A stretch of DNA of 64,000 bases from Patescibacteria group bacterium (GTDB taxonomy: Bacteria > Patescibacteriota > CPR2 > UBA1875 > CAIMLA01), in contig JBGSPL010000001.1 in NCBI GenBank assembly GCA_041738615.1, forward strand, positions 10,706 through 74,705, given 5' to 3'. The notes beneath the pieces are model-generated. The model did no database searches, was not told the DNA's origin, and worked only from the letters and a program-made list of their open reading frames with translations. This document shows positions 3,312-54,714 of the stretch, piece by piece. The first letter of the stretch is position 1; each line of letters opens with the position of its first letter. A program made the translations under genes and the position numbers.

Positions 3312-4205
3312 GTGGCGACAACTTACACAAATATTACCGACAATAAGGTAAAAACGATTTTTTGGATTACCTTTTTTGTGGCTTTCATTATTGCTTTTGG
3401 TTACATCCTCTCAAAAGCCCTAGATATCGTCTGGCTTTTTCCTCTGGCGATAGGAATTGCCAGTTTTCAGGCAATATCCTCTTACTGGTGGAGCGACAAG
3501 ATAGCACTCGCAGTGAGTGGGGCCCAAGAAGTCGACAAGGCGGCTGATCCAGTCCTTTATCGTACGGTTGAAAATCTCTCCATAGCGGCGGGGTTACCAA
3601 TGCCGAGAGTCTACATTATAGAAGACGCGGCACCGAATGCCTTCGCCACAGGGAGAAACCCCGCGCATGCTGCCATCGCGGTAACTAGGGGATTACTAGA
3701 GAAGCTGACGAAGCCCGAGCTAGAGGCAGTGTTGGCGCATGAATTTTCACATATCGGGAATGATGACATCTTATTGTCTACAGCAATTGTGGTACTTGTA
3801 GGGGTTGTCGTAATGGTCTCGGACTGGTTTTTGCGAATTAGTTTCTGGGGAGGAGATGACGATAACAGGAATCCCTACATGATGCTTGTCGGGGTTTTGC
3901 TTGCATTACTGTCACCTCTATTCGCAACTTTGGTTCAGCTCGCTATCTCGCGAAAAAGAGAATTCCTCGCAGACGCAAGCGGGGCGTTACTTACCAGAAA
4001 CCCGGGTGCACTTGCCGACGCATTGGGGAAGATATCGGCAGATCAGGTGCCACTAAAACGCGCCGGTAAAGCTACTGCTCATCTCTATATTTCAAATCCC
4101 ATGAAGGAACATAAGGGGTCCACAAGAGGCTTGTTTGCTGGACTCTTTAGTACGCATCCCGACACAGAGGAGAGAGTACAGCGCTTACGCGAAATGGCAA
4201 TGTAA
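3312..4205 (+). CDS. htpX: M48-family zinc metalloprotease HtpX-like
   Basis: HEFSHI (HExxH) zinc motif, four hydrophobic segments, and the usual LemA-HtpX gene pairing. Confidence 0.8.
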   Translation: MATTYTNITDNKVKTIFWITFFVAFIIAFGYILSKALDIVWLFPLAIGIASFQAISSYWWSDKIALAVSGAQEVDKAADPVLYRTVENLSIAAGLPMPRVYIIEDAAPNAFATGRNPAHAAIAVTRGLLEKLTKPELEAVLAHEFSHIGNDDILLSTAIVVLVGVVVMVSDWFLRISFWGGDDDNRNPYMMLVGVLLALLSPLFATLVQLAISRKREFLADASGALLTRNPGALADALGKISADQVPLKRAGKATAHLYISNPMKEHKGSTRGLFAGLFSTHPDTEERVQRLREMAM

Positions 4206-4224: not shown

Positions 4225-4839
4225 ATGGACGAGAACGAGCAAAAACCAGAAAAGGTACATTTTAGCCTGAAGCGGTTGGCTATGACCACACTCATTGTGG
4301 TTGTTACCGCTGGCGTGGTGTTTGGTATTACTTGGTTTATCCTGGACAAAATGACCAATGAAAACGAGGAAGCCAGTGATAAGCTTCGAATCGAGTTGCA
4401 AAAGCAAATCGATGAGCTCAGAGTGAAACTCAAGAAGGATGTGTCTTCGGCGGCCGCTACTGACCCGCTCGTATATGTTAATGACAAGTATAGTTTCCAG
4501 GTGACCTTCCCTACAGATTGGACAGGGTATAAACTACTGGAGAAGAATATTGAGGGATCTATGCAAACTTGGTATGTGGAGCTTCCCACAAAAGATTCAG
4601 CATGGGCAAAGGCGTCTTCCACAAATGATGCAGGACATGTAAGTCTGTTTGCTATTAGTGCATATACCGAACAGCAATGGAGCGACGTAAATTCCAATGA
4701 GAATAATACGAACACATTTATCAAGAAGATTGGTAGTTACACCTTTGCTTACTCTCACGCGCAGGCAGCGGCTTCAGACATAACTCAGTCCCAATCCGGC
4801 GAGGTCAAATCGATCATCTCTACATTTAAGGAAATCTAG
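4225..4839 (+). CDS. hypothetical membrane-anchored or secreted protein
   Basis: ORF with an AAGGAGG RBS and one N-terminal TM helix. I see no recognisable catalytic motif. Confidence 0.5.
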   Translation: MDENEQKPEKVHFSLKRLAMTTLIVVVTAGVVFGITWFILDKMTNENEEASDKLRIELQKQIDELRVKLKKDVSSAAATDPLVYVNDKYSFQVTFPTDWTGYKLLEKNIEGSMQTWYVELPTKDSAWAKASSTNDAGHVSLFAISAYTEQQWSDVNSNENNTNTFIKKIGSYTFAYSHAQAAASDITQSQSGEVKSIISTFKEI

Positions 4840-14257: not shown

Positions 14258-17200
14258 TTGTCCGCAGCTAAGCCAAAATTTGTTCATTTGCACGTTCATA
14301 CTCATTACTCTCTCCTCGACGGGATGGGCAAAATTCCCGACTACTTGGATCGGGCGAAGGCGCTTGGTATGCCGGCGATGTCTATTACCGACCACGGTGT
14401 TATGTACGGTGCAATCGAGTTCTACAAAGAGGCCAAGAAGCGCGATATCAAACCAATCATTGGATGCGAGTGCTACGTTGCTCCACGGACACTTCACGAT
14501 AAAGAAGCCAGAATCGATAATAGGCCACACCATTTGGTACTACTTGCCAAGAATAACACCGGCTACAAGAATTTGATGAAGCTGGTTACCATCGCCCATA
14601 TCGATGGCTACTATTACAAACCGAGGATCGATAAGGATACTCTGCGGCAGCACTCGGAGGGCCTAATCGGGATGTCTGCATGTCTCAACGGGGAACCTGC
14701 GCGAAATGTTATGAATGGGGATTACGAAAAGGCAAAGGCAGCAGCTCTAGAATACGAAGAAATCTTCGGTAAAGACCACTATTATTTGGAGCTTCAGGAT
14801 CAGCCAGGTGCAGAAGAGCAAACGAGAGCCAACGAGGGCCTCAAGAAGATTGCCAAAGAAACAGGGATTGGACTTGTCGTTACAAATGATGTTCACTACG
14901 TGAACAAAGATGACGCAGAGGCTCAAGACATCCTGCTCTGCGTACAAATGGGCAAGACAGTAAACGACGAAGATCGCATGAAAATGACGATGGACAACAG
15001 TATGCGTACTTACGAGGACCTGTTGGAAGCATTTCCAGACGTTCCCGAGGCTTTCGAAAATACGGTGAAGATAGCTGAAATGTGTGATGTCAGTATAGAG
15101 CTTGGGGGCATCCTGATTCCTGACTACCCAGTCCCAGCAGGTTTCACGGTTAGTGCCTATCTGGAAAAACTTGTAAACGAGGGGGTTTCAAAACGCTACA
15201 AGGAGCGCACACCGGAGCTTGAGGAGCGTTTGAAGTACGAGCTTGGCGTGATAGAACGTATGGAATACCAGGGCTATTTCTTGATAGTTCAGGATTATGT
15301 GAACTGGGCCAAAGACCAAGGAATCATTGTAGGCCCAGGCCGCGGATCAGCGGCTGGATCAGTAGTGGCATACGCGCTAGGGATTGTAGATCTCGAACCG
15401 ATGCAGTATGACCTCCTTTTCGAGAGATTCCTAAATCCAGACCGTATATCCATGCCTGACGTAGATATGGACTTTGCGGATGACAGACGCCATGAGGTAA
15501 TCTCTTATGTAACGGAGAAGTATGGCCAGGATAAGGTGGCACAAATCATAACCTTTGGAACGATGAAGGCTCGCAATGCAATTCGCGATGTAGGACGAGC
15601 ACTCGGTATGGTTTATGGTGATGTGGACCGAGTGGCAAAGATGGTTCCTGAGGTCCTCAACATTCGTCTCAAGGAAGCCCTAGAGACAGGACCAGAGCTG
15701 AGGAAGGCATATAACGAAGAGCCGGAGATCAAGCACCTTATTGATCTAGCGATGAGACTCGAGGGTGTAGCGCGTCATAGTTCTACCCACGCTTGTGCTG
15801 TTGTGATTTCTCGTGACCCCCTGGTCGAGTATGCTCCTCTGCAAAAGGCAACCAAAGGTGATATCGCCATCAATACACAATACGAGATGCACGCGATTGA
15901 AGATCTTGGTCTGCTCAAAATGGACTTCCTGGGTCTTTCCAACCTGACTGTCCTAAACAATGCGATGCGCATAGTCCGCAAGGTATATGGCGATGAGATA
16001 GACCTTTATACCTTACCGACCGACGATAAGAAGACGTATCAACTGCTTTCAAAAGGAGAAACTACTGGTGTTTTCCAATTGGAATCTGCAGGGATGAAGC
16101 GATATATCAAAGAACTAAAGCCTACGGTTTTTGAAGATATCATAGCGATGGTTGCTCTGTATCGCCCAGGTCCTATGGAGAACATCCCTGAGTTTATTGC
16201 TCGTAAGCATGGTAAAAAAGCGATTAAGTATCAGCATCCATTGATGGAGACGGCGCTCAAGAATACTTATGGAATTACCGTATATCAGGAACAGGTCATG
16301 CAGATTTCGAAGGATCTGGGCGGGTTTACTGGGGGACAGGCAGATACTTTGCGTAAGGCTATTGGGAAAAAGATCTCAAAACTGCTCAAGCAGATGCGCA
16401 CAGAATTCGTAGACGGTGCAAAACGTGAACACGATGTACCGCCAAAACTAGGCAACGAGATCTTTGACGGTTGGGAAGCCTTTGCTTCTTACGCTTTCAA
16501 TAAATCTCACGCTGCTTGTTATGCCCTGATTTCATATTGGACAGCGTATCTGAAGGCACACTATCCGGCAGGCTTTATGGCTGCACTGATGACCTCTGAT
16601 TATGGAAATATGGATCGCATTACCATAGAGATCGACGAGTGTCAAAGAATGGGGATCGAGGTTCTTCCCCCCGATGTGAATGAATCATTTGCCGAGTTTG
16701 GCGTCGTTAAAGATACGGGTAAGATTCGTTTTGGTCTCATGGCTGTAAAGAACGTGGGTAAAGGCCCTATAGAAGCTATCCTTGCAGCTCGCGAGGAGGG
16801 TGGCAAATTTGTCTCGATTGAGGATTTTGCCCGACGTGTTCATACGTCAGAGGTCAACAAAAAGATGTTGGAGTCACTCATCAAGTGCGGTGCCATGGAT
16901 TGCCTGGGAGATCGAGGTACATTACTTTCCAATATGGAACGTATCCTAATGTTTAGTACTAAATCGCAAGGCAGCGCCGCAAGCGGGCAGATAGACCTTT
17001 TTGGTGGTCAGGGGATAGAGATGCCACCGCTCAAGCTAGAGCCAGCGCCACGGAAGCTGACAACTCGGGAGCTTCTAGGCTGGGAAAAGGAACTCCTCGG
17101 CATCTATATATCGGCGCACCCCATAAACGAGTACAAAGAGATTTTAATAAAAAATAACATTACCCCGATAGTAGAGCTCACAGAAGAAATGAATAATCAG

Positions 17201-17728
17201 ACCGTTCGGATAGGTGGAATTCTCGTTACCTTGCAGAAGATACAGACCAGAAATAAGCAAACTATGTTTTTTGCGGGATTCGAAGACCACACTGGAAAGA
17301 CAGAGCTGATTGTGTTCCCGAAAATTATCGAAGAAGACGGGATGGACAACTGGGTGATTGGAAAGGCGCTGCTTGTCAGAGGTAAGGTAAGCACCAAAGA
17401 TGCGATGGTAAAGGTAATTGTAGACAAGGCATTAACACTGGAGGGGAGCAATATGATAGGAGAAGACGTTCAGGTGGTGGACCCGCTAATCAATCAATCA
17501 GTTCAGATGGATTCAGATGGGACTGTAAGTATCTATATTCCACGGGGAACGGTGAACGAGGCTTTAAATGACATCAAATATAAGCTAGCAGCTAACAAGG
17601 GAGAAACCCCGGTCGTTGTTTATGTACCAAATGGCGCCACTGGACCCAAGAAGGTGAAGCTACCATTCGGAATCGCCTATAGTGAGAAGCTAGCTGAATC
17701 GATAAGAAAACGATTAAACGCGAACTAA
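14258..17728 (+). CDS. dnaE: DNA polymerase III alpha subunit DnaE (TTG start)
   Basis: PHP domain HLHVHTHYSLLDG, polymerase core, and an OB-fold near the C-terminus. GGGGG SD 4 nt upstream of the TTG. Confidence 0.95.
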   Translation: MSAAKPKFVHLHVHTHYSLLDGMGKIPDYLDRAKALGMPAMSITDHGVMYGAIEFYKEAKKRDIKPIIGCECYVAPRTLHDKEARIDNRPHHLVLLAKNNTGYKNLMKLVTIAHIDGYYYKPRIDKDTLRQHSEGLIGMSACLNGEPARNVMNGDYEKAKAAALEYEEIFGKDHYYLELQDQPGAEEQTRANEGLKKIAKETGIGLVVTNDVHYVNKDDAEAQDILLCVQMGKTVNDEDRMKMTMDNSMRTYEDLLEAFPDVPEAFENTVKIAEMCDVSIELGGILIPDYPVPAGFTVSAYLEKLVNEGVSKRYKERTPELEERLKYELGVIERMEYQGYFLIVQDYVNWAKDQGIIVGPGRGSAAGSVVAYALGIVDLEPMQYDLLFERFLNPDRISMPDVDMDFADDRRHEVISYVTEKYGQDKVAQIITFGTMKARNAIRDVGRALGMVYGDVDRVAKMVPEVLNIRLKEALETGPELRKAYNEEPEIKHLIDLAMRLEGVARHSSTHACAVVISRDPLVEYAPLQKATKGDIAINTQYEMHAIEDLGLLKMDFLGLSNLTVLNNAMRIVRKVYGDEIDLYTLPTDDKKTYQLLSKGETTGVFQLESAGMKRYIKELKPTVFEDIIAMVALYRPGPMENIPEFIARKHGKKAIKYQHPLMETALKNTYGITVYQEQVMQISKDLGGFTGGQADTLRKAIGKKISKLLKQMRTEFVDGAKREHDVPPKLGNEIFDGWEAFASYAFNKSHAACYALISYWTAYLKAHYPAGFMAALMTSDYGNMDRITIEIDECQRMGIEVLPPDVNESFAEFGVVKDTGKIRFGLMAVKNVGKGPIEAILAAREEGGKFVSIEDFARRVHTSEVNKKMLESLIKCGAMDCLGDRGTLLSNMERILMFSTKSQGSAASGQIDLFGGQGIEMPPLKLEPAPRKLTTRELLGWEKELLGIYISAHPINEYKEILIKNNITPIVELTEEMNNQTVRIGGILVTLQKIQTRNKQTMFFAGFEDHTGKTELIVFPKIIEEDGMDNWVIGKALLVRGKVSTKDAMVKVIVDKALTLEGSNMIGEDVQVVDPLINQSVQMDSDGTVSIYIPRGTVNEALNDIKYKLAANKGETPVVVYVPNGATGPKKVKLPFGIAYSEKLAESIRKRLNAN

Positions 17729-17779: not shown

Positions 17780-17808
17780 TTGTGCAAAGAGGGGATTTGT
17801 GTTATAAT
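17780..17808 (+). promoter_or_regulatory. promoter with extended -10 (TTGTGC-17-TGtTATAAT) driving GC-rich cassette 1
   Basis: TATAAT at 17803-17808 preceded by TGn. Weak -35 TTGTGC 17 nt upstream. Confidence 0.5.
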
Positions 17809-17932
17809 CTTTTTTGTCAATCTGTACCCAAACCAATCGATTGGAGGATGAGGCCGATGCCTCACGATGCAAGTCCGTAGGATGGTCCTGCCCAAAGAGG
17901 GGACCAGAAACTACGGAAGTAATAGGGGAACC

Positions 17933-18139
17933 ATGTTCCAGACGGAAGATGAGCGGCGTATGTCGCTCGAACAGGCGCTTCGTGAAGTCGAGTACTTCAT
18001 CGCCAAGGGCGAAGCCTATATTAGGGAGCACGTTGATCACCTGGTGAAGGTTCTTACCCCGCATCACGAGGAGCCGGCTATCCAGGAGTTCGTCTCCAAC
18101 TACCAGATCGAGCTTGCAACCGAGACCGTCGAGTCGTAG
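17933..18139 (+). CDS. hypothetical small protein (68 aa) in GC-rich cassette 1
   Basis: AGGGGAA SD, then ATG at 17933. The predicted protein has helical character (MSLEQALREVEYFIAKGEAYIREHVDHLVKV...). The ORF-track start at 17867 lacks an SD. Confidence 0.45.
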   Translation: MFQTEDERRMSLEQALREVEYFIAKGEAYIREHVDHLVKVLTPHHEEPAIQEFVSNYQIELATETVES

Positions 18140-18157
18140 CCGAAAGGAACTGTAGTC

Positions 18158-18376
18158 ATGACGGGGTCCACTTGCACTGAAAGCACGCATGTCCCGCTTG
18201 CAGAGGCTGATCCGCTCACCCTCGCGCGTCGCATGATGCGACACTACGTGGAGGGTGAACACAACCGTCCGATGTCGGACATCTGCAAGCGAGTCTACGC
18301 AGGCTGGATGCGTGATCACGTCAGTGATCCCGACATCGCCGCCTTCGTGGAACTTCACGGTCTTCAGGCTGCCTAG
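18158..18376 (+). CDS. hypothetical small protein (72 aa) in GC-rich cassette 1
   Basis: AAAGGAA SD upstream of the ATG, 18 nt after the previous stop. No family recognised. Confidence 0.4.
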   Translation: MTGSTCTESTHVPLAEADPLTLARRMMRHYVEGEHNRPMSDICKRVYAGWMRDHVSDPDIAAFVELHGLQAA

Positions 18377-18527
18377 CGGTCTGATCGATTAGGTTTACTG
18401 ACTTCCAGGCAACCCGTGATGGGTCCCTGAGGAAGATAGAGGTTGGTAAGGTGGAATACACTGTCCCGTAGGTGATTGTTCCGAGCTTTCGGAGCATGAT
18501 ATGGCGCAGTCCCACCCGACCCATTAT

Positions 18528-18665: not shown

Positions 18666-19340
18666 ATGAAAGCAATCGAAGCTATGAATCAGAAAATGTT
18701 GAAGAACGTACCAGAGCTAAAGCCTGGTGATACTGTTCGCGTACACACCAAGATCATCGAGGGTAGCAAGGAACGTATCCAGGTATTTGAGGGAGTTGTA
18801 CTTAGGGTAAAGGGTGGTGGAATCAATCAGACTTTCACTGTTCGTAAGCTTTCGTATGGTATTGGCGTAGAGCGTACTTTCCTTATTCAGTCACCAAAGG
18901 TAGCAAAGATCGAAATAAAGAAGAGAGCCAACGTTCGTCGTGCATATCTTACTTATCTACGCGCACTTCGTGGTAAGGCAGCCAAGCTTAAGGACCTCAA
19001 GTTTGACGCCCTGGCAGCAAACTATGTAGAACCAGAGCTTACAGCAGAGGATCTCGCGCCAGCAGCTGAGGAAATTACCGACGAGGCAATCACAGAGATT
19101 ATTGCGGAGGAGGCAGCAGAGGAAGCTGTTATTTCAGAAGAGGTTTCTACTGAAGACATCGCAGAAGCTGAGAATAGCGAAGAGGCCAAGGATGAGCCCA
19201 CTGACGCCGCTGAGACAGATCACCAGGTTGCCCAGGAAGAGGAAGTAGAGGCTGGAATTGAAAAAGCCGAAGCAGACCTTGAAAAGGGTAAGGATGGTGA
19301 AGGAGCCACAGCCGAGAAAACAGTCGAAGACGTACAATAA
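18666..19340 (+). CDS. rplS: 50S ribosomal protein L19 with a roughly 110-aa acidic C-terminal extension
   Basis: The N-terminal ~115 aa match L19 ([22 protein letters not shown]...). The C-terminus is E/A/D-rich and low-complexity. Confidence 0.9.
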
Positions 19341-33305: not shown

Positions 33306-33334
33306 TTGAAATAATTCCATTTTTGGCTTAGAAT
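33306..33334 (+). promoter_or_regulatory. sigma70-like promoter (TTGAAA-17-TAGAAT) for the PurH-domain cassette
   Basis: TTGAAA at 33306-33311 and TAGAAT at 33329-33334. Confidence 0.55.
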
Positions 33335-33368
33335 GCCCTCACGCTGTCAGCTGGAGGGAGGGTTGTTA

Positions 33369-33971
33369 ATGGAAAAGCGACATGCGTTGCTCTCTGTCTT
33401 TGACAAGACGGGGATTGTTGAGTTCGCAACTGGACTCGTGAGTTTCGGTTTCGTGTTGATTGCCTCAGGGGGTACTGCGGCGGTTTTGCGCGAGGCTGGG
33501 CTCGAAGTGATTGATACGGCCGACCTTGTTGGTGGCCCGATTCTCGGGCATCGTGTCGTCACGCTGTCTCGCGAGATTCACGCCGGTATCCTGGCCAAGG
33601 ACAACGAGGAGGACCGAGCGGAGCTTGCACGGCTCGGCATCAACTTCATCGATCTCGTGGGGGTAGACCTTTACCCGCTCGAAGGTATGGTCGAGAAGGA
33701 AGGGGTCACAGAGGCGGAGGTCATCGAGATGACTGATGTCGGTGGTCCGACGATGCTACATGCGGCCGCAAAGGGTCGCCGCATTGTGGTCACACCTCAG
33801 GACTACGATGAGGTCCTCGACTGGCTCGGTCAGGACGAGCCTGACCCTGTCGAGTTCCGGCGGAATCTGGCCTTCGTGGCAGAACTCACGGCACTGGAGC
33901 ACCTCGAAGCCTCGGCTGCGTACATCGCCAAGGTTGCGGGGATCGAATTCGTCGACGACGAGGAGGACTAG
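33369..33971 (+). CDS. stand-alone PurH-type IMP cyclohydrolase (MGS-like) domain protein
   Basis: Clear similarity to the N-terminal domain of bifunctional PurH (ALLSVFDKTGIVEFA, ASGGTA, GGPILGHRVVTL..HAGIL, VDLYPLE, DVGGPTMLHAAAKG). GGAGGGAGGG SD 5 nt before the ATG at 33369. No AICAR-transformylase domain follows. Confidence 0.75.
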   Translation: MEKRHALLSVFDKTGIVEFATGLVSFGFVLIASGGTAAVLREAGLEVIDTADLVGGPILGHRVVTLSREIHAGILAKDNEEDRAELARLGINFIDLVGVDLYPLEGMVEKEGVTEAEVIEMTDVGGPTMLHAAAKGRRIVVTPQDYDEVLDWLGQDEPDPVEFRRNLAFVAELTALEHLEASAAYIAKVAGIEFVDDEED

Positions 33972-46420: not shown

Positions 46421-48511
46421 ATGCCTAGAGAATATTCACTCGAAAACACAAGAAACATCGGAATTGCCGCTCATATCGATGCTGGTAAAACCACTGTAAC
46501 CGAGCGTATCCTATACTATACTGGTCGTACTCATAAGATCGGTGAAGTGCACGAGGGTGCAGCTACTATGGACTGGATGGAGCAGGAGCAGGAGCGTGGT
46601 ATTACTATCACATCCGCAGCGACTACTTGTTTTTGGGCTGGTCATCGTATCAACATTATTGACACACCAGGTCACGTAGACTTTACCGTAGAGGTAGAGC
46701 GTTCTTTGCGCGTATTAGACGGTGCGGTCGTAGTATTTGACGGTAAAAATGGTGTAGAGCCTCAGTCCGAGACTGTATGGCGCCAGGCCGATAAATATCA
46801 TGTTCCACGTATCGCTTTTGTAAACAAACTTGACGCTATCGGCGGCGATTTCTATATGTCGCTGGAATCTATCAAGGAACGTCTCGGTGCCAATGCAGTT
46901 GCTATGCAGCTGCCTATCGGTATGGAGTCTGGCTTCTCTGGTGTTGTAGACCTCATGGAGATGCGTTCGATCAACTACGGTAACGAGGATATGGGCAAAG
47001 AGCAGCATATCGCCGAGATTCCTGCTGACATGCTCGACAAGGCCAATGAATATCGCGCTATTATGGTAGAGAAAATTGCCGAAACCGACGACGCTCTTCT
47101 CGAGAAGTTCTTCGACGGCAAGGAAATCACTGTACCAGAACTCAAGGCTGCGCTTCGCAAGGCTACTATCGCCAACGAAATCGTGGGTGTTTTTGCCGGT
47201 ACTGCGCTTAAAAACAAGGGTGTTCAGCCAATGCTTGACGCCGTTATCGATTATTTGCCAAACCCGCTCGAGGTTCCTGCCGCTCATGGTGAGGACCCAA
47301 AGACTGGCGAGGAAGTAGCAGTAGAGAGTACCGATGATGGTCCTTTCTGTGGTCTTGTTTTCAAGATTGCTGCCGACCCATTCGTCGGTAAGCTTGCTTT
47401 CTTGCGTGTTTATCGTGGTCGCCTTGCTTCTGGAAGTTACGTTCTAAACGTAGCCACTGGGGAGAAAGAGCGTATCGGACGTATCGTTCGCATGCACGCC
47501 AACACCCGCGAAGAAGTGAGTGAAGTTTTCTCAGGCGAGATCGCTGCTGCAGTAGGTCTCAAGAATACTCTTACCGGTAACACTATTTGTGATCCTACCC
47601 ACCCAGTATTGCTCGAGAATATTACTTTCCCAGAGCCTGTGATTCAGGTTGCCATCGAGCCAAAGACCAAGGCCGACCAAGAGAAGATGGGCATCGCCCT
47701 CTCTCGTCTCGCCGAGGAAGATCCTACTTTCCGCGTCCATACCGATGAAGAAACAGGCCAGACTATCATAGCTGGTATGGGTGAGCTTCACCTCGACATT
47801 CTTGTCGACCGTATGAAACGCGAGTTCAAGGTAGAAGCAAACGTAGGTAAACCTCAGGTTGCTTACCGTGAGTCTATCAAGGGCAAGGTTAAACAGGAAG
47901 GTAAGTTCGTACGTCAATCTGGTGGACGTGGTCAATATGGTCATGTTTGGATCGAGATTGAGCCTAACGAAGAAGGTCTAGGATTCGAGTTCATCAATAA
48001 GATTGTTGGTGGCGCGATTCCAAAGGAATACATCAATCCAGTACAGAACGGTATCCGTGAAGCACTAGACAACGGTGTTATTGCTGGTTATCCAGTAGTA
48101 GACGTCAAGGTTACTCTCTATGACGGTTCATTCCACGAGGTAGACTCGAACGAAATGGCCTTCAAGATTGCTGGTTCCATGGCGCTTCAGGAGGGTGTCC
48201 GCAAGGCGACTCCTATTATTCTAGAACCAATTATGAAGGTAGAAGTTACCGTACCGGAAGAGTATATGGGTGATATTATGGGAGACCTCAACTCGAAGCG
48301 TGGACGCATTCAGCAGATGTCGGACCGCGGCAATGCCAAGATCGTAGACGCTTTCGTCCCACTAGCTGAGATGTTTGGCTACGCTACAAACTTGCGTTCT
48401 ATGACTCAGGGTCGTGGCACTAGTACAATGGAATTTGACCACTACGAAGAAGTTCCAGGAAACGTGGCTGCTGAGATTATCGCGAAGCGTGGTAAGAAAC
48501 AGGCAGAATAA
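46421..48511 (+). CDS. fusA: elongation factor G
   Basis: G-domain motifs [18 protein letters not shown], and domains II-V. Confidence 0.97.
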
Positions 48512-48518
48512 CCCCCAT

Positions 48519-48555
48519 CACGTCATTCCGGACCTGATCCGGAATCTATACAAAA
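48519..48555. repeat. hairpin repeat R2 (cGTCATTCCgg-ACCTGAT-ccGGAATCtatacaaaa)
   Basis: ATTCCGG/CCGGAAT stem starting 8 nt after the fusA stop. Same flanks as R1. Confidence 0.6.
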
Positions 48556-48580
48556 AGACCTCAGAAATGAGGTCTTTTTG
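48556..48580 (+). terminator. rho-independent terminator after fusA
   Basis: AGACCTCA-GAAA-TGAGGTCT followed by TTTT. Confidence 0.8.
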
Positions 48581-48590
48581 ATATCTAGTA

Positions 48591-48625
48591 TATTTGTCGT
48601 TCCTGGTCGTAAGCCAGGGATCCTC
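48591..48625. repeat. hairpin repeat R3 (tatttGTCgTTCCtgg-TCGTAAG-ccagGGAtCC)
   Basis: About 30 of 34 positions match R4 at 52078..52108. Confidence 0.55.
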
Positions 48626-48659
48626 CCCTTGGCTTGCCTTGCTAAAGCAAGGCATTCAC

Positions 48660-48689
48660 GATACTTTTGTCCATAGTCACAAAAGTATC
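48660..48689. repeat. perfect 11-bp-stem hairpin GATACTTTTGT-(8 nt)-ACAAAAGTATC
   Basis: Perfect inverted repeat. Sister element at 52214..52241. Confidence 0.6.
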
Positions 48690-48878
48690 CAAAAAGACAT
48701 TATAAATGCGGCGGTCTGAGGACCTTCGCAGCGGACAGTCATGCCTGAGCGGCTTGGGTTTAGTCAAATTGCGATCTCTCACAAATCTATAGGATTGGCC
48801 GTTGTAGTACACGCATTTTATTAATCTCACGTCCTAGGCCCTCCAGACACGTTACAGGGCAAGTTAACGTCAAAATCA

Positions 48879-48907
48879 TTGATTATTGCTCTATTTTGGC
48901 ATATAAT
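48879..48907 (+). promoter_or_regulatory. near-consensus promoter (TTGATT-17-TATAAT) at the head of GC-rich cassette 2
   Basis: TTGATT at 48879-48884 and TATAAT at 48902-48907. Confidence 0.6.
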
Positions 48908-48960
48908 CGCGGTCAGTAGTTTACAGAGCATGGGTTGACTTGCCCAGAGAGGGGAATCGT

Positions 48961-49131
48961 ATGCCGCAAGAAACTGCTGCTCCGGCTTGGATCGGATGGG
49001 TGCTCCTTCTAATCCCCACCGCCATGATCTTCATTGGACCCATGGCGTACAAGAGGCGCGATGACGTAAGAGCTTCGTGGCAAAGGCCGTCAGAGGATGA
49101 GATTAACCGATCGATTGGGTATCGCGGTTAG
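48961..49131 (+). CDS. small hydrophobic protein (56 aa, one TM helix), cassette 2
   Basis: GAGAGGGG SD 7 nt before the ATG at 48961. Sequence WIGWVLLLIPTAMIFIGPMAY followed by a basic tail. Confidence 0.4.
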   Translation: MPQETAAPAWIGWVLLLIPTAMIFIGPMAYKRRDDVRASWQRPSEDEINRSIGYRG

Positions 49132-49196
49132 CCCCGTCTGATAGGTAGTCAAAGGCGAGCGCGCCCCCCGGTGCGCACCTGACGAGAAGAGGGGAC

Positions 49197-49328
49197 ATGA
49201 AGAGGATACTGAGTGATTTGTGGTGGACCTTGGTGGTCTACCTGGTCTGCTCCATTGTCTGGGCCGTTTGTGGCCTGGCTTCGGTCGGGATCGTTCCTGA
49301 CCAGATTGGCGCCGACGAAGGCGCCTAG
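49197..49328 (+). CDS. small hydrophobic peptide (43 aa, one TM helix), cassette 2; not in the ORF track
   Basis: ATG at 49197 after AAGAGGGG. MKRILSDLWWTLVVYLVCSIVWAVCGLASVGIVPDQIGADEGA. Confidence 0.35.
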   Translation: MKRILSDLWWTLVVYLVCSIVWAVCGLASVGIVPDQIGADEGA

Positions 49329-49347
49329 CGCCAGAATGGAGTAGACC

Positions 49348-49593
49348 GTGAGTAAGGTCATAGTCTCCCTGCCGGGAGGTAAGGCGATATTCACAGAGGA
49401 GCTTCCTCGGGAAGCAACGACGGTTTCCGTCGAGTATGCCCAGAGGCTCGTGGATCAGCTCGGGAAGACCGACGGGAGGAACTACCAGCTGTGCACTAAG
49501 CCTCAAGTCGCGAGCGACGAGGACGAGGAGCGCAATCTGCTTCCTGGAGATGTTCTCATCAGCATCGCCGATTTTGGTCCTCGTACAAACTGA
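49348..49593 (+). CDS. hypothetical protein (81 aa, GTG start), cassette 2
   Basis: GGAG SD 6 nt before the GTG. No family recognised. Confidence 0.4.
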   Translation: MSKVIVSLPGGKAIFTEELPREATTVSVEYAQRLVDQLGKTDGRNYQLCTKPQVASDEDEERNLLPGDVLISIADFGPRTN

Positions 49594-49658
49594 GGCCGTC
49601 CACGGCACATCCAAACGCATGTTGGGATGTCGCCGGTGGCGGCCTCTCAACATATATA

Positions 49659-49687
49659 TTGTCAAGAATGCTTATCCATAGTAAGAT
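49659..49687 (+). promoter_or_regulatory. candidate internal promoter (TTGTCA-17-TAAGAT)
   Basis: AT-rich 60-nt spacer inside the GC-rich cassette. Moderate match to consensus. Confidence 0.35.
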
Positions 49688-49753
49688 ATCGCCATCGACG
49701 TTAGTGTCACTTGTGTGCGCCTAGCGGCGTGCACCTACCAAGGGGGGGCGGGG

Positions 49754-50233
49754 ATGATGAAACGCTGGTTACTCGACGGCTTGCAAGTGCTTGTGTTGTC
49801 AGCCGTACTGACAGCGGCTTGTTACGCGCCGGTTTTTGCCGGCATCTGGCTCTACGGGGTCATCGGGGGCTTGAACCTGTTCGTACTGTTCCTGGCTGTG
49901 GCTGTTGTGGCCATTCGCATCGCACTCTCACCACATGGTTTCGTTGAGCGTTCAGCGGACCTGTGGCTTGCAGCTGTGGGCATGTCGCTCGCGGCGCTTG
50001 AGATGTGGAAGCCGCTTCTCACTACAGTCGTCTGCTGCGAGTACTTCATGTTCATGGCAGTGCTCGGCTACGGTGCTCCAGTCTGGTTGCTCGGACTTCC
50101 GGTCGCGATTTGGCCGGTACTGCCACTGCTGGTTTTGGCCAGCACGTTGCTTCTCGGGATGTTCATCATGCTGGAGGCAGAGGGCGACGAATTCTCCGAC
50201 ACCAGCGAGCTGGCGCGGTCGTTCGGCCACTAG
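49754..50233 (+). CDS. hypothetical polytopic membrane protein (about 159 aa, 4-5 TM helices), cassette 2
   Basis: AGGGGGGG SD before the ATGATG at 49754. Strongly hydrophobic with an acidic C-terminus. Confidence 0.5.
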   Translation: MMKRWLLDGLQVLVLSAVLTAACYAPVFAGIWLYGVIGGLNLFVLFLAVAVVAIRIALSPHGFVERSADLWLAAVGMSLAALEMWKPLLTTVVCCEYFMFMAVLGYGAPVWLLGLPVAIWPVLPLLVLASTLLLGMFIMLEAEGDEFSDTSELARSFGH

Positions 50234-50304
50234 GGACACCAGTGTCTCAGGTTCCGGAGGTCCTGCAACGTAGGTTGTGGGGCCTCCGGAAGAGAGAAAA
50301 ATAC

Positions 50305-50333
50305 TTGCACAAAGTAGTGATATATAGTAATAT
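50305..50333 (+). promoter_or_regulatory. promoter for tuf (TTGCAC-17-TAATAT)
   Basis: TTGCAC at 50305-50310 and TAATAT at 50328-50333, with a 110-nt AT-rich leader. Confidence 0.45.
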
Positions 50334-50444
50334 TTGTAAGCCAAATGAATACATATCCACCACGTCACGAAGGACGGGGGGATTTAAAGTGTATTACAAG
50401 AATATTAAACAAAATTAACAAAGTAAAACTTACAAGGAGACCAA

Positions 50445-51620
50445 ATGGCTGAAGTTTATAAGAGAGACAAGCCCCATGTAAACGTTGGTACTATCGGACA
50501 CGTTGACCATGGTAAGACAACCCTGACCGCTGCAATTACATCGGTACTTGCAAAGAAAGGCCTAGCTACCGCTAGAAAGTTTGCCGACATCGACAACGCT
50601 CCAGAAGAGCGAGAACGTGGTATTACTATTGCTACTTCTCACCAAGAGTACGAGACAGAGAAGCGTCATTATGCGCACGTTGACTGTCCTGGACATGCCG
50701 ACTACGTAAAGAACATGATCACTGGTGCTGCACAGATGGACGGCGCTATCTTGGTTGTGGCAGCTACTGACGGTCCTATGCCTCAGACTCGTGAGCACAT
50801 CCTACTTGCTTACCAAGTTGGTGTTCCACAGATTGTAGTTTACATGAACAAATGTGACATGGTTGATGATGCAGAGATGCTTGACCTCGTCGAGATGGAA
50901 ATTCGTGAGCTTCTTACTAAGTACAAATATGATGGTGACAACACACCTATCATTCGTGGTTCAGCCCTCAAGGCGCTTGAAGGCGATGCTAAGTACGAAG
51001 AGTCAATCATGGAGCTTATGAACGCTCTTGATACATACATCCCAGAGCCTACTCGTGATACCGACAAACCTTTCATGATGGCTGTAGAGGACGTTTTCTC
51101 TATCAAGGGTCGTGGTACAGTTGCTACTGGTCGTATCGACCGTGGTGTTGTTAAGATCAACGACGAAGTAGAAATCATTGGTATTAAGCCTACTCGCAAG
51201 ACTGTTGTTACTGGTATCGAGATGTTCAAGAAACAGCTCGAGCAGGGACAAGCTGGTGACAATGCTGGTTTGCTACTACGCGGTATTGAAAAGAACGACA
51301 TTGAGCGTGGTATGGTTCTAGCAAAGTCTGGTTCTATCACACCTCATACAGAGTTTGACGCTGAAGTATACGTTCTTACCAAAGAAGAAGGCGGACGACA
51401 TACTCCTTTCTTCAAGGGTTACAAACCTCAGTTCTACATCCGTACAACTGACGTAACTGGTGAGATCGAATTCGAAGGCGAAATGGTTATGCCTGGCGAT
51501 AACGTCAAGATGGCCGTTAAGCTTATCCAGCCAATCGCTATCGAAGAGGGTCTTCGCTTCGCAATCCGCGAAGGTGGCCGTACAGTTGGCGCTGGTGTAG
51601 TTACCAAGATCAAGAAATAG
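50445..51620 (+). CDS. tuf: elongation factor Tu
   Basis: [18 protein letters not shown] motifs and domains II/III. Confidence 0.97.
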
Positions 51621-51629
51621 ATTCACACA

Positions 51630-51651
51630 GATCCCCGCGCAAGCGGGGATC
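51630..51651. repeat. GC-rich hairpin R6 (GATCCCCGC-GCAA-GCGGGGATC) after tuf
   Basis: 9-bp perfect stem followed by TTATAATAAC and no U-run. Flanks resemble R1/R2. Confidence 0.5.
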
Positions 51652-51713
51652 TTATAATAACTAAAACTTATAGATAGCAGGGCACTTTGACCCTGGGAAC
51701 TAGAAGGAGACAC

Positions 51714-52034
51714 ATGGCTGAGAAAAACGAAAAACAGAGGATCCGAATCAAACTAAAGGCGTACGACAACAAGATTATCGACCAGTCGACAACACAGATA
51801 ATCGAGACAGCAGTGCGCAGTGGTGCTAAGGTGGCGGGACCTATCCCACTACCAACAGATAGGACTCCTATCACTGTAAACCGCGCGAGCAACGTCAACA
51901 AGAACGCACGAGAACAGTTTGAGATGCGGGTGCACAAGCGCCTCATAGATATCACTGACTTCACAGCGAAGACAGTGGACAGTCTGATGAGTCTCTCACT
52001 TCCAGCCGGAGTAGACATCGAAATCAAAATGTAA
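51714..52034 (+). CDS. rpsJ: 30S ribosomal protein S10
   Basis: GAAGGAGA SD before the ATG at 51714. S10 signature [11 protein letters not shown]. The ORF-track start at 51687 lacks an SD. Confidence 0.95.
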
Positions 52035-52043
52035 TAGTAAAAA

Positions 52044-52064
52044 AGCCCCTTCGGGGGCTTTTTT
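52044..52064 (+). terminator. rho-independent terminator immediately after rpsJ
   Basis: AGCCCC-TTCG-GGGGCT followed by TTTTT. Confidence 0.8.
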
Positions 52065-52077
52065 GATTACCGGTATA

Positions 52078-52108
52078 TTGTCATTCCTGGTAGTAAGTCA
52101 GGGACCCA
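52078..52108. repeat. hairpin repeat R4 (tGTCATTCCtgg-TAGTAAG-tcagGGAcCC)
   Basis: Near-identical to R3. Confidence 0.55.
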
Positions 52109-52118
52109 GCCTTTCCAA

Positions 52119-52146
52119 CGTCATTGCGAGCGAAGCGCGGCAATCT
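52119..52146. repeat. hairpin repeat R8 (cGTCATTgCgagc-GAAGC-gcgGCAATCtccc)
   Basis: Same architecture, with ATTGC/GCAAT replacing ATTCC/GGAAT. Confidence 0.45.
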
Positions 52147-52153
52147 CCCTGTC

Positions 52154-52178
52154 CGTCATTCCATCGTAGACTGGAATC
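52154..52178. repeat. hairpin repeat R7 (cGTCATTCCatc-GTAGAC-tGGAATCc)
   Basis: ATTCCA/TGGAAT stem. Confidence 0.55.
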
Positions 52179-52213
52179 CATTACTAGCGGATTAATCTTA
52201 GCGTTATTCCTTC

Positions 52214-52241
52214 GATACCTTTCTCTTGAAAGAAAGGTATC
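52214..52241. repeat. perfect 11-bp-stem hairpin GATACCTTTCT-CTTGAA-AGAAAGGTATC
   Basis: Perfect inverted repeat with the same GATAC...GTATC ends as 48660..48689. Confidence 0.6.
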
Positions 52242-52379
52242 CCAAAGTTCAAGAAAAATCGAACTCCCTCGTCTCTGTACGAAATTTTACTGAGCAAGCT
52301 CGCAATAATTTCTAGCATTCGACGATAGCCGGGCGCGCGGCACCGAGCGATTTTTCGGGGGAGTTGGAAGCGAATATTA

Positions 52380-52408
52380 TTGACAAAACGGCAATTTAGT
52401 ATTAAATT
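52380..52408 (+). promoter_or_regulatory. promoter at the head of GC-rich cassette 3 (TTGACA-17-TAAATT)
   Basis: Perfect -35 at 52380-52385. The TAAATT -10 is identical to the rpoB promoter -10. Confidence 0.5.
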
Positions 52409-52482
52409 ATAGTGTCGTCATAGCCCCGATGGCTATTTCGACGCACGTTGACGTTAATTCACGACACCAGGAGGTGTTTGCG

Positions 52483-52935
52483 GTGCCAAACGCTGGTCCT
52501 CGCACCGAAAAGACGGCCGGCGTGAAGCGGCCGAACTGTTTTTGGGTGGCTGTCTTCGAGGTGCTTACCGGTGGGAAGAAGTACCGCGTTGATTTCGCGG
52601 TGAGTCGTTCACAGAAGGACGCCTATCTGGCGGATGGTCACGATTCCTCTGTCGATCGCAACTACTCTCATCTGATATGCGCAAAGCTCAGGGATGAGCA
52701 CGGAGTTATCGTTGAGATTCTTGCACCGAGCCAGTTTCGCTTGATTGAGTTCCATTCACGCGATGCCGGTTCGATGTCCACCGAGGAGTTGGCCCGAATC
52801 ATGCGACGGACCGAGAAGAACACCGCCGAGACTGCTGCAATCGTGGCTGCTCACAACGATAAGAAGGCGGCCAAAGAGAAGGCTAAACGCCAGAGGATAA
52901 CCCGTACTGGAGATGGGCAAGCCGAGCTCTTCTAG
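52483..52935 (+). CDS. hypothetical protein (150 aa, GTG start), cassette 3 gene A
   Basis: AGGAGG 8 nt before the GTG at 52483, in frame with the ORF-track ORF 52429..52935. Lys/Ala-rich C-terminus. No family recognised. Confidence 0.45.
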   Translation: MPNAGPRTEKTAGVKRPNCFWVAVFEVLTGGKKYRVDFAVSRSQKDAYLADGHDSSVDRNYSHLICAKLRDEHGVIVEILAPSQFRLIEFHSRDAGSMSTEELARIMRRTEKNTAETAAIVAAHNDKKAAKEKAKRQRITRTGDGQAELF

Positions 52936-53010
52936 CCTTTGGCTCGCGCTCACAAGGATTTGCGTTTAGGGATGTGCCCAAACGTGAAACAGCACAGAGA
53001 GGGGAGTCGC

Positions 53011-53334
53011 GTGAACGAGCTGGAGCAGTTCTACGCGCATTTGCGGTTCTTCATCCGTGAAGGGCCGAAGTACGTCGTTCCTGGCAAGGAGAGTTGCCCC
53101 GAGGTTACCCTCGACACTCTCGTAAGGCAGGGCATGGAGCTCGAGCCTGAGCTTTGGGGCAATGAGACACAGACTCGCGAGATCATCTTTGGACTTCGCG
53201 GCATGGACCTCGCAGCCTGGGAGGTTTTTGCTCGCAAGAATCCCGAGGGTTTCAAGCGGCTCAAGTCGGCCTACGACTACGAGGAGGCGTTCCATATCGC
53301 GATGTCTCGCGAAGAGGCCGCCAAGAAACGCTAG
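53011..53334 (+). CDS. hypothetical protein (107 aa, GTG start), cassette 3 gene B
   Basis: GAGGGGAG SD 4 nt before the GTG at 53011, in frame with ORF 52939..53334. No family recognised. Confidence 0.4.
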   Translation: MNELEQFYAHLRFFIREGPKYVVPGKESCPEVTLDTLVRQGMELEPELWGNETQTREIIFGLRGMDLAAWEVFARKNPEGFKRLKSAYDYEEAFHIAMSREEAAKKR

Positions 53335-53344
53335 TGACGTCAAC

Positions 53345-53393
53345 GTCGACGACCGTGGGCGGTGGGGGAAACCCCGCTGCCCACGTCGACCAA
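53345..53393. repeat. 49-bp GC-rich hairpin-forming direct repeat, copy 1
   Basis: GTCGACGACCGTGGGCGGTGGGGGAAACCCCGCTGCCCACGTCGACCAA. GTCGACG/CGTCGAC outer stem, imperfect inner stem around a GAAA loop. Confidence 0.8.
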
Positions 53394-53460
53394 TTTAATA
53401 CTCTATATGGTACGAACAGTGCCACCAACGACGTCAAACCCCAGGAAGGGGTGTGGCTTT

Positions 53461-53883
53461 ATGACTGCAGGAATCGAGGAACTCATCCGAATCATCAACG
53501 ATTCGCGTGAGGGCAAGCATTTCGAGCTGACGTCACTGACTGTGATGTTGCTTACCGAAGGTAAACCGGACGGGGTCTTCTCTAGCTCGGTTCCCTTCCG
53601 CTACATCATCGAGTGCCTTCTCGACGGGTTTGAAGGCGCTTGGGTCAACGTACTCAGCGAGCGTCACCTCGACGAGGGGTACCAGGAGCTGTTGGCCCTG
53701 ACACCGTTTGGTGGTAAGCAGCTGCTCTTTGCCACTCACACTTCAGTGGGCCTTTCTTTGGAAGGGTTCGAGTTCCTGATGTGGGACGACGAGGGACACC
53801 TGCGGACACCCGAACGGGTAAAGGCTCAGTTCGGCAACGATGCCCTGGGTTGGCTTGAAGCCTGGGTTTACGAAGCTTCCTAG
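53461..53883 (+). CDS. hypothetical protein (140 aa), cassette 3 gene C, bracketed by the 49-bp repeats
   Basis: AGGAAGGGG SD about 10 nt before the ATG at 53461. Acidic. No family recognised. Confidence 0.45.
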   Translation: MTAGIEELIRIINDSREGKHFELTSLTVMLLTEGKPDGVFSSSVPFRYIIECLLDGFEGAWVNVLSERHLDEGYQELLALTPFGGKQLLFATHTSVGLSLEGFEFLMWDDEGHLRTPERVKAQFGNDALGWLEAWVYEAS

Positions 53884-53889
53884 CTTGAC

Positions 53890-53938
53890 GTCGACGACCG
53901 TGGGCGGTGGGGGAAACCCCGCTGCCCACGTCGACCAA
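53890..53938. repeat. 49-bp GC-rich hairpin-forming direct repeat, copy 2
   Basis: 49 of 49 identical to copy 1. Ends 5 nt before the rplC promoter -35. Confidence 0.8.
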
Positions 53939-53943
53939 AATAG

Positions 53944-53972
53944 TTGACATTTGTGAGTATTTTATATACAAT
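53944..53972 (+). promoter_or_regulatory. promoter for the rplC-led S10/spc block (TTGACA-17-TACAAT)
   Basis: TTGACA at 53944-53949 and TACAAT at 53967-53972, followed by a ~120-nt leader. Confidence 0.55.
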
Positions 53973-54090
53973 TGTTCTTGCGTAAAAAGATATATTCGCA
54001 AAAAACCATCGGGGGATGGGCAAGTCTACACAAGGTTGTAGAAACTGTCTGTCTGTCGAATAGTATTATATTGATTAAAAAGGATGAACA

Positions 54091-54714
54091 ATGAAGGCAT
54101 TGATCGGTAAGAAAATCGGAATGACTCACATCTTTGACGAGAAGGGTACTGTTGTACCCGTGACCGTTGTAGAGGCGGGTCCATGTACTGTTGTTCAGGT
54201 GAAAACACCAGAAGTTGACGGCTATAGCGCTGTTCAGCTCGGTTTTGGCTTGGACAAACGTATCAACAAGCCACTGGCCGGGCACGTCAAGAGCTCTGGC
54301 GCAGTGCCAAAAGTGCTTCGCGAGTTTGACCTCGTAGAGGTAGCTCCCGAGGGGGAAGAAGCGGTAACCATCAAGGTTGGCGACGTTATTGGCGTCGATA
54401 CCTTCGAAGTTGGCCAGCTTCTAGCTGCTACAGGGACTTCTAAAGGCAAAGGTTTCGCAGGTACTGTAAAGCGTCACAACTTTACGACCGGACCAAAGAC
54501 TCATGGCTCACACAACTATCGTGCGCCAGGATCAATCGGTGCTGGTTACCCACAACACGTCATGAAGGGCATGCGTATGGCAGGCCACATGGGTGCCGAG
54601 AAGGTAACTGTGAAGAACCTAGAAATTATTAGTATCGATAAAGAAAACAATACACTTGCGATTAAGGGAGCTATTCCTGGTCCACGCAAGGGGATTGTGG
54701 TGCTGAGAGGTTAA
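54091..54714 (+). CDS. rplC: 50S ribosomal protein L3
   Basis: L3 signature and operon position. Confidence 0.95.
   Translation: MKALIGKKIGMTHIFDEKGTVVPVTVVEAGPCTVVQVKTPEVDGYSAVQLGFGLDKRINKPLAGHVKSSGAVPKVLREFDLVEVAPEGEEAVTIKVGDVIGVDTFEVGQLLAATGTSKGKGFAGTVKRHNFTTGPKTHGSHNYRAPGSIGAGYPQHVMKGMRMAGHMGAEKVTVKNLEIISIDKENNTLAIKGAIPGPRKGIVVLRG

Follow-up and report, generated by a model that had tools for sequence, protein, structure and literature searches.

In Proteobacteria, genes are known to be inserted between operons of the rpoBC-str-S10-spc supercluster (Brandis, Cao & Hughes 2019, PMC6735719), and the tuf and rpsJ promoter/terminator regions of Saccharibacteria have been used as independent expression elements (PMC10633639). 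Here we examine a GC-rich cassette lying between fusA (EF-G) and tuf (EF-Tu) in an uncultured Patescibacteria group bacterium, within a stretch of 64,000 nucleotides (GenBank assembly GCA_041738615.1, contig JBGSPL010000001.1, positions 10,706 to 74,705), hereafter the window. Gene order in the window is rpoB, rpoC, rpsL, rpsG, fusA, tuf, rpsJ, then rplC onward, with 1,933 bp separating fusA from tuf. As in the proteobacterial insertions, accessory genes absent in close relatives are found at a transcription-unit junction of the supercluster. Unlike in these, the break falls inside the classical str operon (fusA|tuf), evidently split in Patescibacteria by a terminator and a tuf promoter, and the inserted open reading frames (ORFs) are ORFans carrying their own conserved promoter and leader module. 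The Saccharibacteria elements are consistent with separate units for fusA, tuf and rpsJ. We consider it probable that the insert is an anciently acquired, vertically inherited and lineage-restricted accessory islet in the permissive gap from the fusA terminator to the tuf promoter, probably encoding a small membrane complex. Its placement between the fusA terminator (48551-48583) and the block of the tuf promoter (from 50299), the odd G+C content of its third codon positions (GC3) and its presence or absence in relatives are those of a lineage-specific islet at an operon junction.

Relatives were collected by scanning species-representative genomes for EF-Tu, which gave 80 loci (L002-L081), mostly from Patescibacteria/CPR (candidate phyla radiation) with a minority labelled Gammaproteobacteria, Acidobacteriota or Bacillales. 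The closest by EF-Tu identity are L002 (CAZCRI010000003.1, 99%), L003 (CAZEFH010000008.1, 95%) and L004 (86%). Same-site GC-rich inserts were found in the sister species L002 (2,524 bp, GC 0.54) and L003 (1,281 bp, GC 0.52); in L004 the fusA-tuf spacer measures only 181 bp and the cassette is absent. The cassette is known in these three related species only, the window genome, L002 and L003, and by sequence comparison it was present already in the common ancestor of at least these three.

It is hardly credible that the insert is a chimeric assembly, or GC-rich, non-coding junk in which ORFs arose by chance. The source is indeed a metagenome-assembled genome, and the candidate peptide p56 and the antisense ORFs resemble chance ORFs. 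Against this, the independent Logan assembly of SRR28170474 (L001) is 100% identical over 48670-50741, covering the whole cassette and its junction with tuf, syntenic homologues occur in two more species from separate assemblies, selection is confined to one frame, and promoter and leader are conserved. Moreover, the inner part of the insert in L002 recurs in a Logan contig from ERR3839025. An origin of the window insert as assembly artefact or junk is effectively refuted by the independent assembly, the homologues and the frame-specific selection.

The cassette, described as GC-rich in an earlier sequence-only reading, is foreign in composition. GC reaches 0.57-0.60 over 48950-50300, compared with ~0.44-0.51 in the remaining window, and GC3 of the four cassette ORFs (p56, p43, p81 and p159) is 0.60-0.75 versus 0.38-0.54 in most of the 15 other window genes measured, with a single exception (0.69) at 33333-33971. 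In all three species the cassette genes show GC3 of 0.63-0.80. The cassette has retained this foreign-looking, GC3-rich composition, and the high values shared between species fit an old acquisition from a much GC-richer donor, partly ameliorated since. The features of the interval are collected in Table 1; the fusA terminator, the hairpin repeats, the near-consensus promoter, the four ORFs and the second candidate promoter listed by the sequence-only reading were all found in place.

Table 1. Features of the fusA-tuf interval and its flanks (window coordinates; L002 and L003, sister species)
Feature	Start	End	Strand	Remarks
fusA (EF-G)	46421	48511	+	left flank of cassette
REP-like hairpin (CATTCCGGA..TCCGGAATC)	48525	48546	+	related copies at other intergenic window sites
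fusA intrinsic terminator (AAAAAGACCTCA-gaaa-TGAGGTCTTTTT, hairpin and T-run)	48551	48583	+	97% identity to L002
Three more REP-like hairpins (48601-48620, 48637-48652, 48660-48689)	48597	48689	+	
Cassette promoter P1, TTGATT-17-TATAAT	48879	48907	+	10/12
p56, candidate single-pass peptide	48961	49131	+	AGAGGGGA Shine-Dalgarno; unverified as gene
Leader hairpin 1 (GCGCGCC-CCCC-GGTGCGC, then ACC)	49154	49180	+	8-17 nt 5' of p43 G-rich Shine-Dalgarno
p43, single-pass membrane peptide	49197	49328	+	58% identity to L002 p45
p81, soluble acidic protein, GTG start	49348	49593	+	core gene, in all three species
Very stable GC hairpin directly 3' of p81	49592	49646	+	-38.4 kcal/mol, z -5.9
Candidate promoter P2, TTGTCA-17-TAAGAT	49659	49687	+	9/12
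Leader hairpin 2 (GTGTGCGCC-TAGC-GGCGTGCAC)	49713	49734	+	25 nt after P2 -10 box, ahead of p159 G-rich Shine-Dalgarno
p159, polytopic membrane protein	49754	50233	+	4 hydropathy peaks
Terminal GC hairpin of cassette	50252	50291	+	-38.3 kcal/mol, z -8.1; L002 and L003 hairpins differ, equally placed
Conserved tuf promoter/leader block	50299	50444	+	L002 99%, L003 77% identity
tuf (EF-Tu)	50445	51620	+	right flank of cassette

Adjacency of fusA and tuf had been taken as canonical and the gap as anomalous. Neither holds in this group of bacteria: in 67 species where one locus holds both genes the spacer has a median of 629 bp, reaching at least 400 bp in 38/67 and at least 1 kb in 28/67, and the tuf-rpsJ and rpsJ-rplC spacers behave similarly. 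The 203 ORFs of at least 60 amino acids (aa) found in enlarged spacers form 166 clusters, and their Pfam content is mixed (GpsA, GNAT, GH18, CarS, HicA/HicB, Phd and others). Because these contents are miscellaneous and unrelated, the fusA-tuf junction is a general landing site for genes. In the comparison with relatives that the sequence-only reading had proposed, long spacers are common and their contents are unrelated, the GC-rich insert being limited to the clade of the window genome, L002 and L003. The site appears to be one of few permissive places in a compact genome. Across the 80 loci, unrelated genes amounting to 0.4-4 kb are frequent at all three junctions (fusA|tuf, tuf|rpsJ, rpsJ|rplC), and a family of 15 members is seen repeatedly between fusA and tuf in a Doudnabacteria-like group.

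We then compared the divergence of the cassette with that of its surroundings. In a sliding comparison with L002, nucleotide identity is 88-99% in the backbone and 45-77% in the cassette. Nonsynonymous (dN) and synonymous (dS) divergence from L002 was estimated by the Nei-Gojobori method: p43 gave dN 0.32, dS 0.96 and dN/dS 0.33, p81 dN 0.24, dS 0.90 and dN/dS 0.26, and p159 dN 0.66, dS 1.23 and dN/dS 0.54. With flanking-gene dN/dS at 0.01-0.02, these values indicate that the cassette is under purifying selection which is real and much weaker than that on the flanking genes. An initial impression of hypervariability (dS 4-5 times that of the backbone, taken from tuf and rpsL alone) was dropped once 12 backbone segments had been measured. 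Their dS ranges over 0.19-0.84: rpsL (0.19) and tuf (0.23) are the lowest, rplC, rplD and the 55618 ORF lie at 0.38-0.46, and rpsG, rpsJ, the 57155 ORF and the C-terminal part of fusA at 0.73-0.84. The cassette core (p43 and p81, 0.90-0.96) is just above the top of this range and p159 higher. Since the dS of the core is near the top of the backbone, no replacement is needed for it, and vertical descent with weak protein-level constraint would explain the core.

Exchange of the cassette by recombination has also to be weighed. The interval would then be a hypervariable island, swapped by recombination and under diversifying selection for, e.g., a surface, host-contact or phage-receptor function, which seems to us unlikely; equally unlikely is its corollary that conserved fusA and tuf serve as homology arms for allele replacement via natural transformation, as could be imagined from the natural transformability of Saccharibacteria (PMC10633639). 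In favour of exchange is a leap in identity to L002 from 45% to 99% exactly at 50298/50299, the same base at which homology to L003 resumes. Yet this sharp boundary is accounted for by the tuf promoter and leader, which begin there and are under strong constraint. The dedicated tuf promoter and leader recognised by the sequence-only reading are indeed conserved in L002 and L003, and a tuf-type promoter TTGCAS-17-TAAWWT with a similar leader is present in cassette-free L004. Exchange would also suit the dS of p159, which exceeds the backbone range, that of c2_168 in a neighbouring islet, which is higher still, the recombinant mosaic of fusA itself and the varying gene content between species; it is opposed by the dS of p43 and p81 barely above the backbone top, by dN/dS below 1 throughout and by the conserved gene order.

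Variation in gene content is located at the cassette edges, where genes turn over. L002 carries an extra upstream unit with its own promoter copy and terminator, composed of a transmembrane (TM) ORF (listed as 82 aa; ~78 aa from the likely ATG), an 82-aa ORF and a 106-aa Cys-rich ORF. In L003 a 103-aa two-TM ORF replaces p43 and a 60-aa CxxC..CxxC ORF replaces p159. Cys-rich small ORFs are found in this way at variable positions (L003 5565-5747, 60 aa, CPEC..CWKC; L002 4281-4601, 106 aa, several CxxC-like pairs), neither of them with a Pfam match.

The most widely conserved product is p81, with 65% identity to its homologue in L002 and 54% in L003 (tblastn) and conserved motifs EELP and ADFGPR. 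In an ungapped 237-nt alignment of the three species its sense frame shows 0 stops and pN/pS of 0.38-0.44, and of all frames it alone is open in all three, the others giving ~1 or carrying stops. Among 5.8 billion clustered proteins p81 found itself and the L002 homologue only, and an exhaustive profile search of 1.84 billion representatives added the L003 homologue only, besides a spurious repeat protein. The latter, P0007, was rejected as a homologue: this 531-aa tandem-repeat protein matches only profile positions 27-54, in nine repeats. No match was obtained among PDB sequences, nor any relative of the p81 profile in JGI metagenome contigs. A confident AlphaFold2 model built from a two-sequence alignment (pLDDT 88, pTM 0.74) has the order ββ-α-β-loop-β, and Foldseek searches against PDB and BFVD returned mostly ubiquitin-like domains with weak scores (E at least 0.025, TM-score below 0.45), the best being ubiquitin-like, MucBP or streptokinase β-grasp domains. 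As the matches are weak, the modelled p81 can be called β-grasp-like and nothing more. Small ubiquitin-like β-grasp proteins encoded beside membrane components are known in type VII secretion, where they are represented by YukD/EsaB. As modelled, p81 would resemble them as a soluble ββ-α-β..β protein of ~80 aa beside membrane-protein genes, a likeness that we use as a lead only. A C-terminal Gly-Gly as in the Ub/ThiS/MoaD class is not found in p81, which ends in the conserved ADFGPR followed by variable residues.

The Kyte-Doolittle profile assigns one TM segment to p56, one to p43, none to p81 and four to p159, in line with the single-TM peptides and the 4-5 TM helices of the sequence-only reading. 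Conserved in p43 are its basic N-terminus, the LSDLWWT motif and an acidic tail (..G.DEGA); the positive-inside rule, applied to the basic N-terminus and acidic tail, suggests an N-in/C-out topology. p81 starts 19 nt downstream of p43, and this tight pair is conserved in two species. In p159, the C-terminal 73-85 residues are 39-41% identical to L002 p179 (tblastn), and the conserved half contains charged residues within hydrophobic stretches and an AP.WLL..P.A.WP motif. Searched in the same 5.8 billion clustered proteins, p159 retrieved only itself. A lipobox-like LTAAC at its residues 19-23 was disregarded, being not conserved in L002, and paralogy of p43 and p159 through a shared [SA]D[LF]W motif was rejected (hhalign probability 1.6% over 8 columns).

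That the four proteins resemble no recognisable family was borne out by library searches. Of the window ORFs, only the seven in the two islets (fusA-tuf and rpsJ-rplC) were scanned against Pfam. Neither the cassette ORFs nor three L002 ORFs matched Pfam, NCBIfam, PHROG or PADLOC models (best PHROG E 0.044; no PADLOC family at E of at most 0.1 for any of 10 proteins), and the protein searches added sister homologues for p81 only.

The promoter and leader signals are particular to the cassette. The promoter scan gave 5 promoter-like sites versus 1.6 expected. The promoter block can be aligned in all three species, with a -35 TTGATT and a -10 TATAAT preceded by GGCA, and the pattern TTGATT-N13-GGCATATAAT has one occurrence each in the window and L003, two in L002 and none in 78 other loci. 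The same pattern searched in metagenome contigs gave five unrelated chance promoters. By these comparisons the P1 pattern is cassette-specific and conserved.

A stem-loop leader of consensus GYGCGCC-N4-GGYGYGCAC, then C(T)ACC, lies 8-17 nt 5' of a G-rich Shine-Dalgarno (SD). The 64-kb window contains exactly two copies of the motif GCGCC-N4-GGYGYGCAC (0.01 expected), one preceding p43 (49161-49178) and one preceding p159 (49717-49734). Outside the window the motif was found only before L002 p45 and the L003 103-aa TM ORF, with a variant before the first L002 TM ORF. Where a promoter adjoins (L003; both copies in L002; P2 of the window), the hairpin begins 19-25 nt beyond the -10 box, a position that corresponds to the 5' end of the predicted mRNA. 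The stability of these leader hairpins is moderate (-15 to -20 kcal/mol, z -1.9 to -5.2). Pairing of their C-rich loop in the manner of an anti-SD was considered and dropped, as it is not conserved between species.

The hairpin at 49592-49646 is likely the end of a first transcription unit, and the window cassette probably consists of two units, each closed by a very stable GC hairpin. L002 carries the cassette promoter twice (3666-3694 and 4675-4703), each time followed by a GC hairpin leader and a TM-protein gene, with an intrinsic terminator (~4645-4672) between the two promoter-leader-gene units; this duplicated layout points to modular duplication. Across the three species four to five instances of the promoter, stem-loop, SD and membrane-peptide module can be counted. 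One may go further and regard the module (promoter, 19-25 nt, GYGCGCC-N4-GGYGYGCAC stem-loop, G-rich SD, membrane-peptide gene) as self-contained and duplicating, forming together with p81 a new membrane-toxin/immunity or addiction system that persists between undeletable translation genes and uses its palindromic leader as a switch. We regard this as an improbable extension.

Short hydrophobic peptides behind a strong promoter had suggested a type I toxin or a membrane-active peptide. Small membrane proteins of bacteria, type I toxins among them, include Hok, TisB, Fst, AcrZ and KdpF. Like these, p43 and p56 are 43-56 aa long, with one hydrophobic helix and a charged tail, and both fall by Kyte-Doolittle analysis within the size (<~60 aa) and TM content of type I toxins. 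Unlike these, p43 has no sequence relation to them and no antisense partner was found for it, it shares its operon with one soluble and one polytopic protein, and it contains conserved non-hydrophobic motifs. By analogy, the operon setting of p43 and the missing RNA antidote would suit an accessory subunit of small size more than a toxin under RNA control.

In a type I toxin-antitoxin-like arrangement, p43 and/or p56 would be membrane-depolarising toxins expressed from the strong promoter and restrained by a cis-antisense RNA. We hold this to be quite doubtful. Strong SDs and a strong upstream promoter would suit such single-pass peptides, p43 is preceded by a structured 5' leader, and toxin-antitoxin genes (HicA/HicB, Phd) occupy equivalent spacers in other Patescibacteria. 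No sign of an antisense RNA emerged from our sequence searches, however: there is no conserved minus-strand promoter or terminator, the sole minus-strand candidate (49710-49683, 9/12) lying in a spacer absent from L002, no Rfam match was obtained, and antisense frames are unconstrained. In addition, p43 is the upstream gene of the conserved p43-p81 pair, its leader hairpin leaves the SD unsequestered, and the same leader also precedes polytopic proteins of 103-179 aa. As to p56, tblastn found no homologue in L002, L003 or the other fetched loci (protein databases were not queried with it), the protein collection does not contain its sequence, and its codon periodicity is weak (GC1/2/3 = 0.54/0.51/0.60). 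The expectation that both peptides would prove to be conserved coding sequences was satisfied for p43, conserved in L002 at the dN/dS given above, and not for p56.

Long minus-strand ORFs in the cassette had been judged probable GC artefacts that could mark an antisense RNA. The first part was right: antisense frames show pN/pS of ~1 or higher, or stops in relatives (0.97-1.41 for the frame of the long antisense ORF), and because only the sense frame is open and constrained in the three-species p81 alignment, the sequence evidence identifies these ORFs as artefacts of GC-rich sequence. The second found no counterpart in the promoter, terminator and Rfam searches just described.

The foreign base composition also brings to mind a decayed mobile element or prophage remnant beside tuf, for instance a cassette for holin-like lysis or superinfection exclusion. 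Also in favour are the charged tails of its small membrane proteins and the gene turnover between species, and a neighbouring islet does hold a gene bracketed by perfect 51-nt hairpin repeats. Purifying selection kept across three species speaks the other way, as do the searches: no PHROG or PADLOC match, no relative of p81 or of two neighbouring-islet proteins in IMG/VR, no DNA match in phage and plasmid DNA collections and no structural match in BFVD (E at least 0.048). No direct repeats flank the cassette in a repeat search over 48400-54200, and the cassette ORFs match no integrase or transposase model, the rest of the window not having been screened for such genes. Neither phage-family homology nor a prophage location was found that would assign it to phage lysis or exclusion cassettes, nor did the PADLOC catalogue assign it to anti-phage defence. 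A phage or mobile-element origin appears without positive evidence in these comparisons, and we rate it as improbable.

Integron gene cassettes share with this locus short, promoter-proximal, compositionally odd ORFan genes, and the bracketing of an rpsJ-rplC islet ORF by identical hairpin repeats is reminiscent of them. Unlike integron cassettes, the insert between fusA and tuf brings its own promoters and is not flanked by recombination hairpins, and the 51-nt hairpin lacks a GTTRRRY core. For attC-like bounding, no direct or hairpin repeats flank 48880-50298, and the terminal hairpins differ between species. Nor is the cassette promoterless and dependent on a Pc with intI/attI: it has its own 10/12 promoter, and no integrase or attI was seen, the window beyond the seven islet ORFs not having been screened systematically for intI.

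Under the reading as an old, vertically inherited islet, a first unit would contain P1, possibly p56, a leader hairpin, p43, p81 and a strong hairpin, and a second P2, a leader hairpin, p159 and a strong hairpin. Near-consensus promoters would allow constitutive transcription independent of the ribosomal genes. The 5' GC stem-loop before each membrane-protein gene may stabilise the mRNA or tune translation or, alternatively, as a DNA palindrome, bind a regulator. The products could form a small envelope-embedded assembly of N-in/C-out p43, polytopic p159 with its conserved intramembrane charges and perhaps p56, with the acidic, β-grasp-like p81 as cytoplasmic partner. Such an assembly would serve a niche-specific envelope function, and neither a function in translation nor one as toxin-antisense pair.

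Several points count against this account. Only three species are available, so the estimates of purifying selection are noisy, above all for the 43-codon gene. Slow amelioration does not fully account for GC3 staying high when dS is ~1 or more. The homologues of p81 and p159 overlap in L002, which lacks P2, and covariation of the leader hairpin amounts to one compensatory pair only (A-U/G-C). By its sequence p56 is unsupported as a gene. The proposed protein complex is read only from gene adjacency and predicted topology. Finally, the single-sequence AlphaFold2 model of p159 is poor (pLDDT 71, pTM 0.44), too much so for a fold search.

If the islet reading is true, three uncharacterised protein families (p43, p81 and the p159 C-terminal domain), with purifying selection and defined expression signals, would be added to the CPR "dark matter", and the fusA|tuf and rpsJ|rplC junctions would be routine landing sites for accessory genes in Patescibacteria. 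This would bear on the use of ribosomal-operon synteny in binning and phylogeny, on neutral integration sites and strong promoters for new Saccharibacteria genetic tools, and on the annotation of small membrane proteins in Patescibacteria genomes. The cassette would represent a set of new orphan families whose genomic setting is of a familiar kind, overturning no expectation.

A second GC-rich islet (52380-53940, GC 0.55-0.58) is located between rpsJ (51687-52034) and rplC (54091-54714), with its own promoter-like TTGACA-17-TAAATT at ~52381. L002 shares two of its ORFs, 52429-52935 and 53011-53334 (56-64% aa identity, dN/dS 0.19-0.28); the second has an AGAGGGGA SD, and neither gave a family match. 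Perfect 51-nt direct repeats at 53343-53393 and 53888-53938, each a GC hairpin with GTCGAC arms, no GTTRRRY and no canonical attC core, bracket ORF 53461-53883, a 140-aa ORFan that retrieved nothing but itself from the databases. In L002 the ORF is missing and the 51-nt hairpin is present once, consistent with either a hairpin-bounded gene gain here or a loss in L002 by repeat recombination.

The fusA mosaic divides residues 1-435 (46421-47725) from residues 436-696 (47726-48511). The C-terminal part is 98.9% identical to L002. Residues 1-135 are closer to L010, L014, L015 and L012 (92%) than to L002 and L003 (88%), and the same holds for residues 136-435 (64-68% versus 58%; dN 0.37, dS saturated).

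REP-like hairpins of the family GTCRTTCC-N-GGRAY occur at 34974, 46366, 48522, 48596, 52080 and 52155, all on the + strand, intergenic and after gene ends; copies sit upstream of both the fusA-tuf and the rpsJ-rplC islets. L002 lacks most of window 48583-48807, and the contig of the independent assembly ends beside REP-like hairpins, at 48670. A further GC-rich islet (~17800-18450, 0.57) between dnaE (14258-17728) and rplS (18666-19340) holds ORFan ORFs 17867-18139 and 18158-18376, which have no Pfam match. Lastly, the gene at 33333-33971, the GC3 exception noted above (GC 0.59), encodes an MGS-like domain (Pfam PF02142, E 3.8e-14) and, on account of its base composition, was probably also horizontally acquired.

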